This document shows, piece by piece, positions 37,286 to 51,719 of a stretch of DNA of 64,000 bases. The stretch is from positions 160,001 through 224,000 of the IMG/VR virus record IMGVR_UViG_3300050156_000143, one strand, 5' to 3'. The stretch is from a virus. Taxonomy: Duplodnaviria > Caudoviricetes. A program made the position numbers and the translations under genes. The first letter of the stretch is position 1. The number at the start of each line of letters is the position of its first letter. The notes under the pieces are model-generated. The model was given only the letters and a program-made list of their open reading frames with translations. It made no database searches and was not told the origin of the DNA.

Positions 37286-37941
37286 TCTATGAAGCAACAT
37301 TCGGCATAATAGACTGAGTGTTGCTTTGGATTACTAACCAACTCTACGCCACCACTCGTGGCGTTTTTCTTATGTGCGGTTCCACCGTATGCCCAAATTT
37401 TGACCTTACTGTGTTGATCTGATACTAGCACAGTGATGGGGGAAATTAGGGACAGGTTGCTGGGCACGGTGTCTAACAGTTCTTTGGCAGGTGGGGTGGA
37501 AGTGACTACCACGATAGATTCAACGTCACAGGCAGCGTTTAGTTCCTTGATGGTTTCATGTAAAAAAGCAACGTCTTCATACATGGCATCGATCTCAGTC
37601 GAATTTCCATACCATCCGTTCGCGCCAATGATAGCCACCTTGTCGGATATGGCATAATCATCGTGCAGATACACGATGTTGTCACGTGTTTCAGAAAATT
37701 GAGTGAAAACTTCTACTACTTGCGAGTTTGGTGTTCTAGAATTTTCCAAAGGGCCGTCGATGAAAAACACGCACTCATAATGTTCCCCAAGATGGTCTAA
37801 CACTTTCTTACACGTTTCCAAATCGTGGCTTATGTTTCCGGCCACCACGCACACATCACTTGTTGCTCGCAATTCCCAATCAAACGATTCATCGACTTGC
37901 AAATTTAAGTCGCTAATCAAATCAAATGTGTGCCCAGACAT
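37282..37941 (-). CDS. degenerate metallophosphoesterase-like protein, late gene
   Basis: FDLISDL, VVAGNI, FFIDGPLE, AIIGANGW; TAAATA on - at 37963. Confidence 0.65.
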   Translation of the reverse strand: MSGHTFDLISDLNLQVDESFDWELRATSDVCVVAGNISHDLETCKKVLDHLGEHYECVFFIDGPLENSRTPNSQVVEVFTQFSETRDNIVYLHDDYAISDKVAIIGANGWYGNSTEIDAMYEDVAFLHETIKELNAACDVESIVVVTSTPPAKELLDTVPSNLSLISPITVLVSDQHSKVKIWAYGGTAHKKNATSGGVELVSNPKQHSVYYAECCFID

Positions 37942-46150: not shown

Positions 46151-46358
46151 CCGCATTGAAGTGGAATCGATGGCAGCTTTTTCTCAGTATAACTGTGGAT
46201 CGTATCCTGGTTTATGGAGTGGACGACTGGTAAAAACCACGATCAATGGCGTTCGATATTTAGTAACTATGCCAATATATTGCAAGGGAGTAAATGTCCC
46301 AGTGACCGTTACGTGTAACGATGGTGTCTATGTTGTTGTGAATAAGGAATCACTATGA
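46140..46358 (+). CDS. hypothetical protein
   Basis: GGAGG SD. Confidence 0.6.
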   Translation: MECDRIEVESMAAFSQYNCGSYPGLWSGRLVKTTINGVRYLVTMPIYCKGVNVPVTVTCNDGVYVVVNKESL

Positions 46359-47368
46359 AAAGCAATTTGGATTATTTTAAGGGCAGCATCGCATTTGCCG
46401 TGCTCACCCTAATTTTGGTGGCGTCATACGGCGCATCTATTAGTTTGGCAGCAGCCGTGAGCTTCACGGTGTCTGCCATGATTTTGGCCATTTTGGAGAC
46501 CACAGTGTCTCTAGATAACGCCATTTTGAACGCCACGGTGTTGAAACACATGAGCGCATTTTGGCGAAAAATGTTCCTCACCGTGGGCATATTCATCGCG
46601 GTATTTGCTGTGCGAATGGTGTTGCCCATCATGATTGTCAAATTCACTGGCAATGTGACTTTCATGGATGCGATCACAATTCCATTCAATGATCCGGCGC
46701 GATATGCGCAAATCATGCACGATGCTCACATTTCTATTCTTGGGTTTGGTGCGACATTTTTGTTGATGGTAGTGGCGACTTATTTCTTCAACATTGACAA
46801 ATCCCACCACTGGATTCACCACGTTGAATCGAAGTTGACACAACTCCCAGTTACGCCAGTGGTGTTGATGGTAGTGGTGGTGATTGGGTATTTTGTCGAG
46901 TTGGACAAACTTGGTGCATATTTTATCAGTTCAGCAATTGGTTACGGTGTATACCAAACTATGCACCTTATCAAGGCATGGCTGGGGGGCAAAGACTTGT
47001 CCACCGCTGTTGCAAAAAATGGCCTAATCGGGTTCGCATACCTTGAACTGTTAGACGCTAGTTTCAGCCTTGACGGCGTGGTGGCAGCGTTTGCAATCAC
47101 CAATATGTTCATCATCATTGCAGCGGGCCTTGGAATTGGGGCTATGTTTGTGCGATCAATGACTGTGTATTTGGTGGACAAAGAAACGCTGGAACAGTAT
47201 GAATTCCTGGAGCATGCGGCATATTGGGCCATTGCGGCGTTGGTTGTGATCATGTATCTGGGTATTTTGCACATCGAAGTGGGCGAAATTGTTGCAGGGT
47301 TAACCTCCGCAGCAATTATCGCTGCTGGGGTGTGGTCATCTATTCGCAAAAACCGTATTTCAAACTGA
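46355..47368 (+). CDS. terC: TerC-family (DUF475) integral membrane protein
   Basis: LE..VSLDNAI.NA..LK.MS.FW, YLELLDASFSLDGV..AFAIT, GLGIGAMFVRSMT. Confidence 0.92.
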   Translation: MKSNLDYFKGSIAFAVLTLILVASYGASISLAAAVSFTVSAMILAILETTVSLDNAILNATVLKHMSAFWRKMFLTVGIFIAVFAVRMVLPIMIVKFTGNVTFMDAITIPFNDPARYAQIMHDAHISILGFGATFLLMVVATYFFNIDKSHHWIHHVESKLTQLPVTPVVLMVVVVIGYFVELDKLGAYFISSAIGYGVYQTMHLIKAWLGGKDLSTAVAKNGLIGFAYLELLDASFSLDGVVAAFAITNMFIIIAAGLGIGAMFVRSMTVYLVDKETLEQYEFLEHAAYWAIAALVVIMYLGILHIEVGEIVAGLTSAAIIAAGVWSSIRKNRISN

Positions 47369-47378
47369 AAGGAATATC

Positions 47379-47978
47379 ATGTTAAAAATCACAAAAGATC
47401 AAAAACTACCATTGGTGAAAGGTGGCGCTAAATTGACCAAAATTCGGTTGGAACTATCTTGGAGTCCACCGACTATCAATACGACCGGATACGCCTATGA
47501 TTTTGATATCAGCGCCTTATTGACCGACTCCTCAAAAACTGGGAATTGCGACATGGGCGTGAGCATTGGCAATCAATGGATATGTTACTGGGGACAACAA
47601 AATACCCCATACGCAAACCATATCAAGGGCGATAACCGCAATGGTGTTGGTGTTGGTGCTGATGAAATTGTGGAAATCGATTTCGCACAAATTCCGCAAA
47701 ATGCTGACCGAGTGCCATGTGTTATCACTATTGACAAAGCGATTGCTCAAAACCAATGCTTCGATCATTGTGGTGATGCGACCGCTGTGGTGTTTGATTC
47801 AGCGTCGAATACCCCAATTGCCACCATTGTGTTGAGCAAGTTGGACAAAGGTTCCACCAGCGCCTTGTTGGGGTGTTTCAAACGAGACAGCGGTGGCTGG
47901 ACATTTGAGAACGCATCGACTGGATTTGTGGATAAGGAATTGGTTGACTTTTTTATGTTGTTTGGATGTGAACTATGA
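47379..47978 (+). CDS. terD: TerD-family stress protein
   Basis: L.W, DFDISA, GDNRNG.G.G.DE.V.IDF. Confidence 0.88.
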   Translation: MLKITKDQKLPLVKGGAKLTKIRLELSWSPPTINTTGYAYDFDISALLTDSSKTGNCDMGVSIGNQWICYWGQQNTPYANHIKGDNRNGVGVGADEIVEIDFAQIPQNADRVPCVITIDKAIAQNQCFDHCGDATAVVFDSASNTPIATIVLSKLDKGSTSALLGCFKRDSGGWTFENASTGFVDKELVDFFMLFGCEL

Positions 47979-48532
47979 ACTTGTATCTAGACTGTGAATT
48001 CAACGAGTTCAAGGGTGAACTCATATCGATGGCGCTAGTGTCAAATTCTGGACATGAATGGTACGAAGTGTTGGAATGCAACCGTCCGAAACCTTGGGTC
48101 AAACAGCATGTCATTCCAGTGCTGAATAAGGATGCAGTCACGATTGACAAATTTCAACAAAGTTTGCGGAACTTTCTGGGTCAATTTTCTACCATTCATG
48201 TGGTCGCAGACTGGCCAGAAGATATTGCTCATTTTTGCAACGCCTTGATTACTGGCCCTGGTGAACGAATGAATACCCCGCCGTTAACTATGGAAGTCAA
48301 GCGGGTAGATTGTGCCAGCAAAATCCCTCATAATGCGCTAAGTGATGCTCGTGGCATCCGTGATGAGTTATGTAAGCCAACCGAATTGACCAAACAATAT
48401 GACACCGGAAACGGTTGGCCAGTCAGAGTTGTGGCCGATTTGTCGGGATACACCTTGCATTTTGCTGACCACACATCATCGACAAAAGAGCATAATGCAA
48501 CGATGGACGAGAGGGGGTTGCTGAAATTATGA
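47975..48532 (+). CDS. 3'-5' exoribonuclease (DEDDh, Rv2179c/DUF5051-like)
   Basis: YLDCEF, LISMALV, ADWPEDI, PHNALSDA. Confidence 0.85.
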   Translation: MNLYLDCEFNEFKGELISMALVSNSGHEWYEVLECNRPKPWVKQHVIPVLNKDAVTIDKFQQSLRNFLGQFSTIHVVADWPEDIAHFCNALITGPGERMNTPPLTMEVKRVDCASKIPHNALSDARGIRDELCKPTELTKQYDTGNGWPVRVVADLSGYTLHFADHTSSTKEHNATMDERGLLKL

Positions 48533-48653
48533 GCATCTTTCCGGGTGCTGTGGAGTTCAAGCGCAAAAAGCGTTAACCCCACTCGTTGGTCAGGAATTGA
48601 CAATGACTTCTGACGGTGTGCTATGATGAACACCATCAACACGTAAATACATC

Positions 48654-48839
48654 ATGAAAACTTCAGAAGTCACCCAACCCTCTCTCAAAATTTTGGCCGA
48701 AACCTTTGATCAAACTCAGTCTGGATTCTTGACGGAAGACCTGATCAATGTCACTCAAGTGGTGAAATGGTCTGCACCAATGTCTAGCGACGATTTGGAT
48801 TGCTTTTTGCAACAATGTGGGGTCAATCTTGAAGGTTGA
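48654..48839 (+). CDS. small acidic protein, candidate antitoxin, late gene
   Basis: TAAATA (48644)-N4-ATG; MKTSEV; overlaps the toxin start. Confidence 0.6.
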   Translation: MKTSEVTQPSLKILAETFDQTQSGFLTEDLINVTQVVKWSAPMSSDDLDCFLQQCGVNLEG

Positions 48840-49170
48840 ATTCCAAGTTTGTGACCTGTTTGTAAAAACGCTGAAAGCAAACCCGCAAGTTGTAAAAACG
48901 TTTATGCAATTCAAGGCGGCAAAAGCAACAAATCCTACCGCAGCATTTGGATCAAGTGATTACCCTTTCAGGCATTCTTTTCTGAAGGGGTATATTCACG
49001 CCAAATTGACATTCGATGTGTCTATCATATACAGCATTTCCGGCGGTGATTCAAAGGTGATAAAACTTTATGGGATTTTTAGCCACGATGATTCTGGAAC
49101 GGGTCAACCGCCTAATCTCAATCGTCAACAATCCCTTGGTAAAAAACTTGGAAATCAGCAGTTCACATGA
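48817..49170 (+). CDS. RelE/YafQ-like mRNA interferase (start may be TTG 48829)
   Basis: DYPF...LKGYIHAKL..D..IIY......L.GIFSHDD. Confidence 0.7.
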   Translation: MGSILKVEFQVCDLFVKTLKANPQVVKTFMQFKAAKATNPTAAFGSSDYPFRHSFLKGYIHAKLTFDVSIIYSISGGDSKVIKLYGIFSHDDSGTGQPPNLNRQQSLGKKLGNQQFT

Positions 49171-49721
49171 TGCAATATGCAGCCCTACGCAATTTACGAA
49201 AAACCAATATGGTGAACGATGGCACTCGAACGCTGTCTGAATCGATTGTTGTGTGGGAAGTCGGCGTGGCTTTTGATGATTTTGTGAAAGCCACCAAGGA
49301 TGAACATTTCGTATTGATCGGTGGGTTGGCGTTGAGCTTTTACGTTAAACCGAGAACGACCACCGATGTTGATGTCTTGTTTTTATCGGACGGTGATATT
49401 CCAGCGTCATTGGATAAATTTAACCACCACAGTGGTGCGTTTGAGCATAAGATGACTGGTGTTGAGGTTGAAGTTCTATCTCCAACGGCAATCAATCTGC
49501 CTCAACACATTGCAGAACACATTTTTGCAACTGCGCGAAAAGTTGACGGAGTTAAAATTGCCTCACCTGCTGGCCTAGTGGTGTCAAAACTCGGGCGCTT
49601 CAATCGGCAAGATCAAGCAGACATTGAATCACTGTTGAAATATGAGAAGTTCAACATTGACGAATATCATGTGCCCCCATTGTGGGAAGAACGGTTTCGG
49701 TCAATTGAGGCAACATTATGA
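49167..49721 (+). CDS. nucleotidyltransferase (DUF6036/AbiEii-like)
   Basis: VLIGGLAL.FY..PR.T.DVD, L..SKL...R.QD..DI..LL. Confidence 0.8.
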   Translation: MMQYAALRNLRKTNMVNDGTRTLSESIVVWEVGVAFDDFVKATKDEHFVLIGGLALSFYVKPRTTTDVDVLFLSDGDIPASLDKFNHHSGAFEHKMTGVEVEVLSPTAINLPQHIAEHIFATARKVDGVKIASPAGLVVSKLGRFNRQDQADIESLLKYEKFNIDEYHVPPLWEERFRSIEATL

Positions 49722-50146
49722 GCAATTTGATGGAATCTGCCAGGTCATTGATGTTACTGGCTCACAAGGGCCAACGGGATCGGGGCGGAAAACCGTATCA
49801 CCTTCATCCCGAACATGTTGCGAATAGCTTATGCACTGATGATGAAGAATTGTTTTGTATCGCATTACTGCACGATGCCAAAGAAGATGGTGGGATCACT
49901 GATGAAATGATGTCAGCTCACGGTATGACTCCCCGTGTGGTGGCCGGGGTAAACGCATTGACTAAAATCCCCGGACAGTCGTTGGAAGAATATAAAACCA
50001 CTGTGATGAGTAATGCCGATGCGACCATAGTTAAACGCGCCGACTTGACGCACAACATGGATTTGACCAGACTGAAAAAAATTACCCAAAAAGATATTGA
50101 CAGAAATGTGCAGTATCAAAGTTTCTTAAACCAGCTCAACCAATAG
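49718..50146 (+). CDS. small HD-domain hydrolase (SpoT/Mesh1-like)
   Basis: AHKGQ.D.GG.PY..HP..V, ALLHD..ED, LTK, VK.AD..HN. Confidence 0.88.
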   Translation: MSNLMESARSLMLLAHKGQRDRGGKPYHLHPEHVANSLCTDDEELFCIALLHDAKEDGGITDEMMSAHGMTPRVVAGVNALTKIPGQSLEEYKTTVMSNADATIVKRADLTHNMDLTRLKKITQKDIDRNVQYQSFLNQLNQ

Positions 50147-50156
50147 GAGAGCAATT

Positions 50157-50921
50157 GTGGACTATGCTGATCGCTTAAAATCACTCGATCTTAAATACAA
50201 AATTGGTATCGGGGTCGCCCTCATCGTGCTGGCACCAGCACTTATCCTGTTATTGAAGTCGTTGATTGCCACCATCGCCATTGGTGCAGTGTGTCTAGCA
50301 ACGATCAATTTTGCACCAGTTTTCTCGCAGAAACTGGCAAATTGGAAGTTGGCGGCAACCATTGATGAAGCGCGTAAACGTCCAATCATCGATGCGACCA
50401 GCGTGTTGGATAAAAAGCAACGCGAATTCGATGAATCGGTCATCAAGGTAAAAGCCGCAACGGGCGCACGTGATACTTTTATCGAAAAATGTCGTGAATT
50501 CTCCAAACAATACCCCCACCGGGCAGATGAGTTTCACAAACGTGCGGAACAATTTGCAATTCGGGTGGAGAAGCTGAAAGTTAAATTGGCTGAGTTCAAA
50601 GTCACCATTGACAATGGTCGCAAGGTGGTGCAGGAAATGAGCGCCTATTATGAAATGACCAAGGCACTGGATGCAGCGAATGCCGCTATCAATATGGGTG
50701 AAATGAACTCAAGCGACCAGATTCGTCTGGATACTGCTTGGAACAGTGTGTTGCAACAAATGAATAGCTCGTTTGCTGATTTGGAGATTGCGGAGGCTCT
50801 GGCAAAAGACCCGGAAGCACCACTTCCAGCTCAACCTACGTCACCAAAGATGCCGCAACTTGAACAGCCACAGGTGAACCCTGCTGCCGGACTGTTTGCC
50901 AAAATGAAACAATCTCGGTAA
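50157..50921 (+). CDS. membrane-anchored coiled-coil protein (PspA-like, tentative)
   Basis: Two N-terminal TMs then long helical heptads. Confidence 0.65.
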   Translation: MDYADRLKSLDLKYKIGIGVALIVLAPALILLLKSLIATIAIGAVCLATINFAPVFSQKLANWKLAATIDEARKRPIIDATSVLDKKQREFDESVIKVKAATGARDTFIEKCREFSKQYPHRADEFHKRAEQFAIRVEKLKVKLAEFKVTIDNGRKVVQEMSAYYEMTKALDAANAAINMGEMNSSDQIRLDTAWNSVLQQMNSSFADLEIAEALAKDPEAPLPAQPTSPKMPQLEQPQVNPAAGLFAKMKQSR

Positions 50922-50947
50922 AACAGTCGGGTATAGCTTGAGCGTCG

Positions 50948-51277
50948 ATGTTTGAGCTATACTTGTCTCAACTTTTGGAGAGCACCTTGTTTCAGCACCG
51001 TTTTGCCCATGATGATGTTCCTGCGATGCGTTTCATGCGTTTGGTGGAAAGAGTGTGTCATAAACATGATTTGAGCGTGTTGGAACTGATAAACGCACAT
51101 TCTCAGGAAACTTGTTACGACACGCTGATTCGATTTTGTGACCAACAATCGCTCACCCGTTTCAAAACAATGGCCCAAACCGATTTGTCACCCGTGAGTG
51201 ACATTGACGTGATGAAAACCATCGAACTGGTGTTCGCCCAAGAGATCGGTGAATTTGGTCGGCCACAATCTCTTTGA
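50948..51277 (+). CDS. hypothetical protein
   Basis: 109 aa ORF. Confidence 0.6.
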   Translation: MFELYLSQLLESTLFQHRFAHDDVPAMRFMRLVERVCHKHDLSVLELINAHSQETCYDTLIRFCDQQSLTRFKTMAQTDLSPVSDIDVMKTIELVFAQEIGEFGRPQSL

Positions 51278-51290
51278 ATTTCACTGATTA

Positions 51291-51719
51291 CTAGGCAGCC
51301 GATTGACCAGTGCTGCCAATTCGTTTGATTGCACCGTCGATTGTTGCCATGCTGTCATCAAAATCGTCGTCGTTGTCTTTGATACGATCTAGAGCGGTGT
51401 TGATGGATGAGATGCCGTCGTCAAACCCATCAGCAACATTATCTGCCATCAATTGTTTTTCAATGCGTTTGAGCGCACCACGAACTTTGTTCATGTTGAC
51501 CATAGTAGCTGACCGCCATTTTTTTCGGTCTGCTGGGTCTTTGAATTTGTTCACAATGGCAAGTGCTTTCTTGCAGTGAGTCATGCGTTTGATTGCGTCA
51601 TCGATGTCGGAAATCTGGGAGGCATCAACAACTTCCTGGAGTTGTTCAAGACCATGAGAGTAACTCTCATCGAGACGGCGCACATTGGCAAGTTTTAAGA
51701 GTTGAGTAAGTTCATCCAT
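51291..51719 (-). CDS. helical late protein
   Basis: TAAATA (51724, -)-N4-ATG; internal repeat FDDGISSINTALDRIK / FDDSMATIDGAIKRIG. Confidence 0.75.
   Translation of the reverse strand: MDELTQLLKLANVRRLDESYSHGLEQLQEVVDASQISDIDDAIKRMTHCKKALAIVNKFKDPADRKKWRSATMVNMNKVRGALKRIEKQLMADNVADGFDDGISSINTALDRIKDNDDDFDDSMATIDGAIKRIGSTGQSAA

Follow-up and report, generated by a model that had tools for sequence, protein, structure and literature searches.

The region analyzed here lies in a 64,000-nucleotide stretch of viral DNA (referred to below as the window), which corresponds to bases 160001-224000 of the virus record IMGVR_UViG_3300050156_000143; this record is 277,516 bp long and has direct terminal repeats. 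The record stems from an uncultured jumbo phage of leaf litter, and DNA nearly identical to it is present in several leaf-litter metagenomes. The portal and virion genes and a late-promoter-like motif fit a phage of the T4 type. Four overlapping genes, designated O1 to O4, follow one another on the + strand of this region, and the present analysis deals mainly with the first two, which recur as a pair in other large phages. O1 (48654-48839) encodes an acidic protein of 61 amino acids belonging to a new family, which is predicted to be the partner and inhibitor of O2. O2 (48829-49170) encodes a protein of 113 amino acids with a RelE/YafQ/YoeB fold, likewise the representative of a new family, and is predicted to be an mRNA endonuclease. 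O3 (49167-49721) encodes an orphan MenT1-like (DUF6036/AbiEii) nucleotidyltransferase of 184 amino acids, and O4 (49718-50146) an Aph1-like small alarmone hydrolase of 142 amino acids, which carries an HD domain and is predicted to hydrolyze (p)ppApp.

The placement and the overlaps of these four open reading frames, all of which are on the + strand, are exactly those given in a first-pass annotation made from the sequence alone. The overlap amounts to 11 nucleotides between O1 and O2 and to 4 nucleotides (ATGA) between O2 and O3 and between O3 and O4. A TTG codon was chosen as the start of O2 because the resulting N-terminus (MKVEFQVC) fits those of the homologs; the alternative GTG start at 48817 would yield a protein of 117 amino acids instead of 113. 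When the region was compared by blastn with 50,697 phage records, no match was obtained.

The O1-O2 pair

No match to O2 was found at an expectation value (E) of 1 or less in Pfam, PHROGs, NCBIfam, or PADLOC, and the Pfam models of RelE, YafQ, ParE, and YoeB were among those that failed to detect it. The family collected by means of an exhaustive HMMER search comprises at least 273 representative clusters, defined at 50% identity, at E≤1e-3, and 165 of them at E≤1e-10. The profile built from 35 sequences of this family matched the YafQ-type toxin HP0892 of Helicobacter pylori (1e-4) and, with values of 0.16-0.4, YafQ of Escherichia coli. The AlphaFold2 model of O2, in which the mean predicted local distance difference test score (pLDDT) is 96.2, shows the two N-terminal helices lying on an antiparallel sheet that define the RelE/ParE fold. 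The best Foldseek matches in the PDB were YoeB, RelE3, YafQ, and RelBE toxins (3e-5 to 1e-3, with template modeling (TM) scores normalized to the target of 0.64-0.76), and the top 30 all belonged to the RelE superfamily, save the RelE-like domain of Cami1. The family profile and the structure model therefore bear out the RelE/YafQ-like fold that the first-pass annotation had assigned to O2.

Several residues are nearly invariant among 151 representatives of the family, namely K32 (150/151), D44 (150/150), H57 (140/152), D63 (142/152), Y68 (152/152), H86 (150/151), and G90 (151/151). In the alignment with YafQ, D63 and H86 occupy the positions of D67 and H87, respectively. YafQ H63 corresponds to position 59, where His is present in 98, Gly in 29, and Lys in 13 of 152 sequences, the O2 under study having Lys; YafQ H50 corresponds to the variable position 45 (Tyr45 here), and the near-invariant H57 is an additional feature of the O2 family. 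The last 25 residues form a conserved C-terminal extension (GTGQPPN..Q....NQxF, with a helix at 97-108) which has no counterpart in YafQ. Since the curated libraries gave no match, while the profile, the fold, and the conserved residues are of the YafQ type and the extension is peculiar to the family, O2 represents a new family inside the RelE superfamily, outside any named family, and is probably a ribonuclease (RNase).

The resolution of the fold comparison does not allow RelE to be told apart from ParE, which leads to another reading, in which O2 would not be an RNase at all: it might be a ParE-like protein with some other target, such as gyrase, or an inert binder, and O1 would then be a non-nucleolytic partner. 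ParE complexes do occur lower in the list of fold matches, the neighbors of O2 in a protein language model include clusters annotated as ParE, and the missing Pfam RelE/YafQ match and the C-terminal extension without a YafQ counterpart would be in keeping with such a function. We nevertheless regard this reading as decidedly unlikely, because the best matches in terms of both sequence and fold are the RNases YafQ, YoeB, and RelE, and because the near-invariant residues His57, Asp63, and His86 stand at the acid-base positions of YafQ. To our knowledge, ParE proteins do not keep these acid-base residues.

The O2 family appears to be almost confined to large phages. The scan based on peptide patterns, in which the viral loci were gathered from a sub-alignment of nine sequences, yielded 30 viral loci as compared with one small contig of a metagenome-assembled genome. 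This contig, 3 kb in length, was the only match when one O2 peptide pattern was searched for in the genomes of 185,579 bacterial and archaeal species, although the pattern is narrow and hence gives only weak evidence that O2 is absent from cells. The only match obtained by tblastn in the phage records was in the Ralstonia phage RsoM2USA. The top match in a viral fold library was a protein of 116 amino acids showing 39% identity with O2, which is probably the RsoM2USA homolog.

O1 itself gave no match in Pfam, PHROGs, NCBIfam, or PADLOC. At 28 of the 31 loci that were fetched, an acidic open reading frame (isoelectric point about 4.2; 48-65 amino acids in nearly all cases) abuts or overlaps the O2 homolog on its upstream side. 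Homology with O1 is detectable at 18 or more of these loci, and 18 of the sequences can be aligned as a single O1 family characterized by the motifs MKIxEV, TGFLTEDL, and WSxPMTxxEL. The cultured Ralstonia jumbo phage RsoM2USA carries the same pair in the form of genes 115 (O1) and 114 (O2), both of which are annotated as hypothetical. In addition, the O1 profile matches the N-termini of longer proteins of the O2 family belonging to several clusters that are at most 50% identical to one another, from which it can be concluded that single-chain O1-O2 fusions exist; one of these fusions is present letter for letter on 11 contigs and is therefore not an assembly error. As in type II toxin-antitoxin systems, O1 is a small partner gene which is adjacent to O2 and translationally coupled to it.

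The structure predicted for the O1-O2 complex reached a score of 0.63, whereas the best of three controls scored 0.01. Of 80 solved complexes, 58 attain this mark, as do 2 of 110 mismatched pairs; these counts hold only roughly here because our own family alignments were used. At least 73% of the contacts agreed between runs, and the pLDDT of the partner was at least 68. On the O1 side, the modeled contacts involve residues 23-60, which leaves only about 22 N-terminal residues outside the predicted interface; on the O2 side, they involve the first strand, the helices, residue 57, and the stretch 84-87, so that H57 and H86 are included. The complex model supports, but does not prove, binding between the two proteins, and adjacency and fusion lend it independent support. 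Conserved adjacency, the fusions, and the complex model all speak for the earlier suggestion that the acidic protein of 61 amino acids is the partner of the RelE-like protein.

In the language model, EF-hand proteins come nearest to O1 (0.91-0.93), although they have few features in common with it, and the conserved stretch D-x-N-x-D-T-G-F-L-T-E-D of the O1 homologs loosely resembles a calcium-binding loop. This lead was not confirmed by Pfam scans of the 18 family members.

The data suggest the following mode of action. By analogy with its superfamily, O2 would be a RelE/YafQ-type endonuclease acting on the mRNA that occupies the ribosomal A site. The C-terminal two-thirds of O1 would wrap around O2, contribute an extra strand to its sheet, and shield the site containing His57 and His86, and O2 would stay off until O1 was removed or outnumbered. 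The task of the pair would presumably lie in conflicts fought at the level of translation, such as host shut-off or the exclusion of a competing phage.

Several points weigh against this interpretation, in addition to the lack of any match to O2 in the curated libraries. Since the position equivalent to H50 is variable and position 59 is occupied by Gly in 29 of 152 sequences, the chemistry of O2 may differ from that of YafQ. Complexes of RelE with antitoxins have already been solved, so that the O1-O2 model may have passed, at least in part, through likeness to them. Most type II antitoxins carry a recognizable DNA-binding domain, and none of the 18 members of the O1 family matches a Pfam family of this kind. 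Lastly, the single-chain fusions speak against the simple logic of a labile antitoxin.

The known systems that come closest are DinJ-YafQ and HP0893-HP0892. The toxins of these pairs share the fold of O2 (target TM 0.65-0.74), give the best profile matches, and have the equivalents of D67 and H87 in common with it; their partner genes also overlap the toxin gene on its upstream side, as O1 does, and O1 is predicted to wrap around the toxin and cover its active site in the same way. O2 differs from these toxins in that it belongs to no Pfam family, does not conserve YafQ H50, and ends in an extra helix, and the O1-O2 pair in that the partner has no DNA-binding domain, fused forms exist, the carriers are jumbo phages of the lytic type, and both an early and a late promoter are present. 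The PaaA2-ParE2 system of a cryptic prophage of E. coli O157 includes an acidic partner of about 60 residues, PaaA2, which has no DNA-binding domain and only neutralizes the toxin. This system resembles O1-O2 in being phage-associated and in having a toxin of the RelE/ParE fold, and ParE2 complexes were present among the fold matches to O2; in contrast to what is predicted for O2, ParE2 is not known to be an RNase, there is a third gene encoding the regulator PaaR2, and O1 shows no sequence similarity to PaaA2. As regards RNases of T4-type phages, RegB of T4 reportedly has a RelE/YoeB-like fold in its published structure and serves to inactivate mRNAs. RegB differs from O2 in having no known inhibitor partner, and no RegB-like relatives of O2 were found in the viral fold library or in PHROGs. 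Toxin and antitoxin are fused in CapRel, and O1-like and O2 domains are likewise joined in one chain in some members of the family, although the toxin fold and the order of the domains are different.

Putative promoters of the O1-O2 pair

The first-pass annotation had placed a leaderless late promoter ahead of O1, at the TAAATA motif located on the + strand (48644-48649) 4 nucleotides before the O1 ATG. This proposal is supported by the frequency of the arrangement in the genome, where 28 of the 85 TAAATA sites are followed by ATG at this spacing (12 on the + strand and 16 on the - strand), while each of the other spacings from 0 to 14 occurs 0-4 times. The TAAATA-N4-ATG sites in the window are located at 2943, 5025, 14556, 48644, and 61136 on the + strand and at 2292 and 51729 on the - strand. 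Nearly all the starts of this kind in the genome open long reading frames, including the portal gene (phrog_213, 7e-96) and those of three virion structural proteins. In view of this enrichment, the motif is a real and recurrent signal of the genome, and ahead of O1 it is plausibly a leaderless late-type promoter, the timing and the start of the transcript being inferred. Taken together, the 28 sites appear to mark a group of late genes with leaderless messages in a jumbo phage of the T4 type. In comparison with the T4-type late promoter TATAAATA, the site ahead of O1 is CGTAAATA, which agrees at 6 of 8 positions; the exact TATAAATA is not enriched within the window.

A sigma70-like promoter, which was missing from the first reading, was identified on the + strand (48597-48627), 20 nucleotides further upstream than TAAATA. 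It would consist of TTGACA at 48597, a 19-nucleotide spacer, and the extended -10 element TGcTATGAT. The automatic scan had overlooked it because only spacers of 16-18 nucleotides were accepted, the spacer of 19 nucleotides being long. The sequence TTGAC(A/T)-N17-TAnAAT occurs at the same relative place upstream of the O1 homologs in 12 or more of the 21 other phages compared, where the sigma70-like box is then followed by ATAAATA or TATAAATA. In at least nine other phages, (A)TAAATA stands 4-6 nucleotides ahead of the ATG of the O1 homolog, and elsewhere it precedes a GGAG ribosome-binding site. The O1-O2 cassette therefore seems to bring along promoters of its own, one sigma70-like and the other T4-late-like, which are conserved across phages. 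The fact that it has two promoters means that the O1:O2 ratio could vary in the course of infection.

This arrangement suggests that the pair might be an offensive effector subject to timing, in which the RNase would be free early and silenced late, or in which the complex would be packed into virions and injected. O1 has no Shine-Dalgarno sequence on the sigma70 transcript, whereas O2 has a GGGG site of its own; the layout with two promoters is conserved from phage to phage, the leaderless late-type arrangement is common to virion genes, and 30 viral loci were found as compared with one small contig. On the other hand, about a third of the cassettes have GGAG before O1, so that O1 would be translated from both transcripts, and the fused forms cannot shift the O1:O2 ratio at all. 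We therefore hold an offensive use of this kind to be rather unlikely.

In a more elaborate form of this idea, O1-O2 would be a self-contained timing device for the control of translation in large T4-type phages. The early transcript made by the host-type machinery would be translated poorly into O1, which would leave the RNase free to shut off host mRNA; the late leaderless transcript would then be translated efficiently into O1, and the RNase would be silenced and the late messages, many of which are leaderless, spared. The complex made late in infection might also be packaged for the next one. The chances of this scenario are small in our estimation, somewhat smaller than those of offensive use in general; if it were true, a pair resembling a toxin-antitoxin system would have become an offensive, temporally programmed weapon of a lytic virus.

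The proteins encoded by the leaderless open reading frames at record positions 37481, 165025 (window 5025), 135002, 130163, and 123703 have nearly identical N-termini (MRLHE, MRLRE, MKLRE), and the start of the O1 homologs, MK(I/T)xE(V/I), recalls these sequences. Such similar N-termini may reflect either a paralogous family or a common N-terminal signal. The pattern (L/I)-x-E which they contain may resemble the site of the T4 prohead protease.

The predicted enzymes encoded by O3 and O4

O3 matches Pfam DUF6036 (5.8e-11; 42.9 bits as compared with a cut-off of 23.6) and AbiEii (5e-7; 30.3 bits as compared with 22.5), and the profile of the O3 family matches MenT1 of Mycobacterium tuberculosis (8an4) at 3e-6. 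The AlphaFold2 model has a pLDDT of 93.8, and its best fold matches are MenT1/MenAT1, with TM scores of only about 0.5. The description of O3 as a DUF6036/AbiEii-like nucleotidyltransferase in the first-pass annotation is consistent with all these data. Across 36 sequences, no variation is seen at G52, G53, T65, K141, and D152, and D67, D69, and E102 each recur in 90% or more, T65, D67, and D69 making up a T-x-D-x-D motif. Among these residues, T65, D67, K141, and D152 align with T39, D41, K137, and D152 of MenT1, which means that the catalytic core is present. In MenT1, the antitoxin induces auto-phosphorylation at T39, nucleotide binding requires D41 and K137, and the substitutions D41A, K137A, and D152A abolish tRNA modification (PMC11375011).

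MenT1 of the MenT1-MenA1 system is thus the best match to O3 in terms of both profile and fold, and is of comparable length (196 amino acids as compared with 184). O3 differs from it in belonging to DUF6036 rather than DUF1814, in having no MenA-like neighbor, and in being encoded by large phages. Homologs of O3 were found in 65 clusters showing 31-57% identity, on contigs of up to 500 kb, while tblastn against the phage records gave no match. At five O3 loci, no conserved neighbor or antitoxin gene (MenA or AbiEi) was detected, the neighbors at these loci showing no similarity to one another or to anything in the present genome; two O3 homologs have an RNA ligase or a CCA-adding enzyme in their vicinity. 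Since the catalytic residues are kept and no conserved antitoxin gene accompanies them, O3 resembles an active enzyme without a cognate antitoxin. By analogy with MenT1, it probably adds nucleotides to the 3' ends of tRNA, either as a weapon or in the repair of RNA ends, both of which are possible.

In a freshwater metagenome (X4), one 3.5x contig skips 169 nucleotides within O3 (window 49261-49431). The shorter side of the joint measures only 26 nucleotides, and the contig may come from a deletion variant or from another organism.

O4 scores 26.6 bits with Pfam HD_4, just below the cut-off of 27.2, and matches phrog_990 at 4e-43. Its best solved relative is Aph1 (7smg), with 2.4e-20 over residues 2-133, as compared with about 1e-6 in the case of the hydrolase domains of Rel and SpoT. 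The residues of O4 that correspond to the HD pair of Aph1 (in ALLHD) are H52 and D53, and four of the six signature residues D24, R96, D116, R119, K133, and Y134 of Aph1 are kept (as D21, D115, R118, and Y133), R96 and K133 being replaced by Thr95 and Gln132, respectively. Aph1 (PDB 7smg) is a (p)ppApp-specific small alarmone hydrolase, and mutation of D24 and R119 lets it act on ppGpp (PMC10083569). Both of these specificity residues have equivalents in O4. Conversely, a guanine-binding feature of the SpoT/Mesh1 type is lacking, since the Arg which stacks on guanine in Rel is replaced by Asp in O4, as it is in Aph1. O4 also resembles Aph1 in its compact size, its HD motifs, and the absence of the extra helices of SpoT and Rel, and Aph1 itself is phage-borne; unlike Aph1, it has Thr and Gln at the two positions mentioned above, and no (p)ppApp synthetase toxin is encoded next to it or elsewhere in the genome.

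O4 had previously been described as a SpoT/Mesh1-like HD hydrolase that might help to silence the stringent response. The HD hydrolase type is retained here, but the closest relative is Aph1 and not SpoT, and with a protein so much nearer to Aph1 than to SpoT and Rel, silencing of the stringent response is not the best reading. By analogy with Aph1, O4 probably destroys the (p)ppApp produced by toxic alarmone synthetases of the host, which would amount to counter-defense. A counter-defense role has already been proposed for HD alarmone phosphodiesterases in jumbo phages (PMC7824862). The possibility that O4 might confer immunity to an alarmone-synthetase toxin of the phage itself was rejected, since no RelA_SpoT synthetase domain was detected in the phage genome.

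Gene order and its meaning

The first-pass annotation had grouped the four genes into one module, with O2 and O3 acting on translation, O4 as an alarmone hydrolase, and O1 as a regulator. Synteny across phages, which had been named beforehand as a test of this idea, was found in the case of the O1-O2 pair alone. Among the 31 other O2 loci, an O3 homolog was present nearby at one (on contig L002), in a different order, and an O4 homolog at none; counted over the 30 viral O1-O2 loci, neither O3 nor O4 was found within 5 kb. When the open reading frames within about 4 kb of O2 were clustered at 22 loci, only O1 and O2 proved to be universally common. Conversely, the five O3 loci have no O1, O2, or O4, and O1, O2, and O3 are likewise missing from the surroundings of all 35 viral O4 loci, most of which are prophages of sequenced isolates. 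The pairing of O1 with O2 thus recurs, while O4 and, save on L002, O3 are absent from its vicinity, and a four-gene system is not supported by synteny.

There are nevertheless features that an integrated module would explain. The genes overlap tightly with no internal promoter or terminator, the three enzyme families all come from toxin-antitoxin or defense biology, and the four genes are also contiguous in two sister strains found in other samples, although this says little at about 96% identity. On L002, which belongs to a distant relative, the order is O3, a gene encoding 188 amino acids, O1, and O2, with O3 about 0.8 kb upstream of the pair; together with the contiguity in the sister strains, this makes it conceivable that O3 is functionally connected with O1-O2, which is a further point against the independence of the genes. 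The order on L002 differs from that observed here, however, no HD gene is adjacent, and genes in the accessory regions of phages overlap as a rule. In the light of these data, we judge a single four-gene module to be very improbable. The product of the 188-amino-acid gene does not belong to the HD proteins and shows no relationship to O4 or to the exonuclease-like gene upstream. The O3 homolog on L002 is flanked on either side by genes of unknown function which are paralogs of each other (L002:1-267 and L002:844-1410; 59% identity over 69 amino acids).

The region looks instead like three separate conflict modules lying side by side, which are probably co-transcribed. That O1-O2 is a cassette of the toxin-antitoxin type, accompanied by an independent O3 and an independent O4, is the interpretation we favor, with reasonable though by no means full confidence.

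Two further genes, encoding proteins of 254 amino acids (50157-50921; membrane segments plus a coiled coil) and 109 amino acids (50948-51277), follow on the + strand. The first begins 10 nucleotides past O4 and has an AGGAG ribosome-binding site, and a convergent gene starts after 51277; the only library match to this pair was phrog_27316, the function of which is unknown. No + strand terminator was predicted within 47900-51400, and the two genes are probably part of the O1-O4 transcription unit. The operon of four genes proposed previously is thus probably extended by these two co-oriented genes.

On the upstream side, the window contains genes encoding a multi-pass membrane protein of 337 amino acids (46355-47368), then a TerD-domain protein (47379-47978; Pfam TerD, 7.8e-25), and directly after it a protein of 185 amino acids (47975-48532), which matches phrog_2259 "RNase H" at 2.7e-31. 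A homolog of the latter showing 43% identity is located about 0.9 kb upstream of an O3 homolog on a 499-kb phage contig (L070), and a weaker homolog occurs on the contig L002, where the gene concerned faintly matches Rv2179c-like exoribonucleases. A loose linkage between an RNA-end nuclease and the O3 nucleotidyltransferase is possible in view of these gene arrangements. In the sister strain X3, the TerD-domain gene is separated from the exonuclease-like gene by some 460 additional bases (window 47978). X2 and X4 have a 10-nucleotide insertion behind 48512, which would alter the exonuclease-like gene in its last few codons.

RelE-type toxins are textbook components of bacterial toxin-antitoxin systems. 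What is new here is the O1-O2 cassette, an undescribed, phage-restricted, promoter-bearing, and sometimes fused pair of the RelE superfamily, which points to a large unannotated branch of this superfamily, almost confined to big phages and provided with a new small acidic partner. As regards the neighboring genes, the Aph1-type character of O4 points to counter-defense against toxic alarmone synthetases and not to control of the stringent response, and "translation" genes that adjoin and overlap one another in the accessory region of a phage do not necessarily form a system. The fact that the pair is present in a cultured phage, RsoM2USA (genes 115 and 114), makes it directly testable. The question raised is why a lytic virus should carry a restrained translation nuclease, and the answer would bear on host shut-off, on the exclusion of one phage by another, and on how phages borrow the parts of toxin-antitoxin systems.

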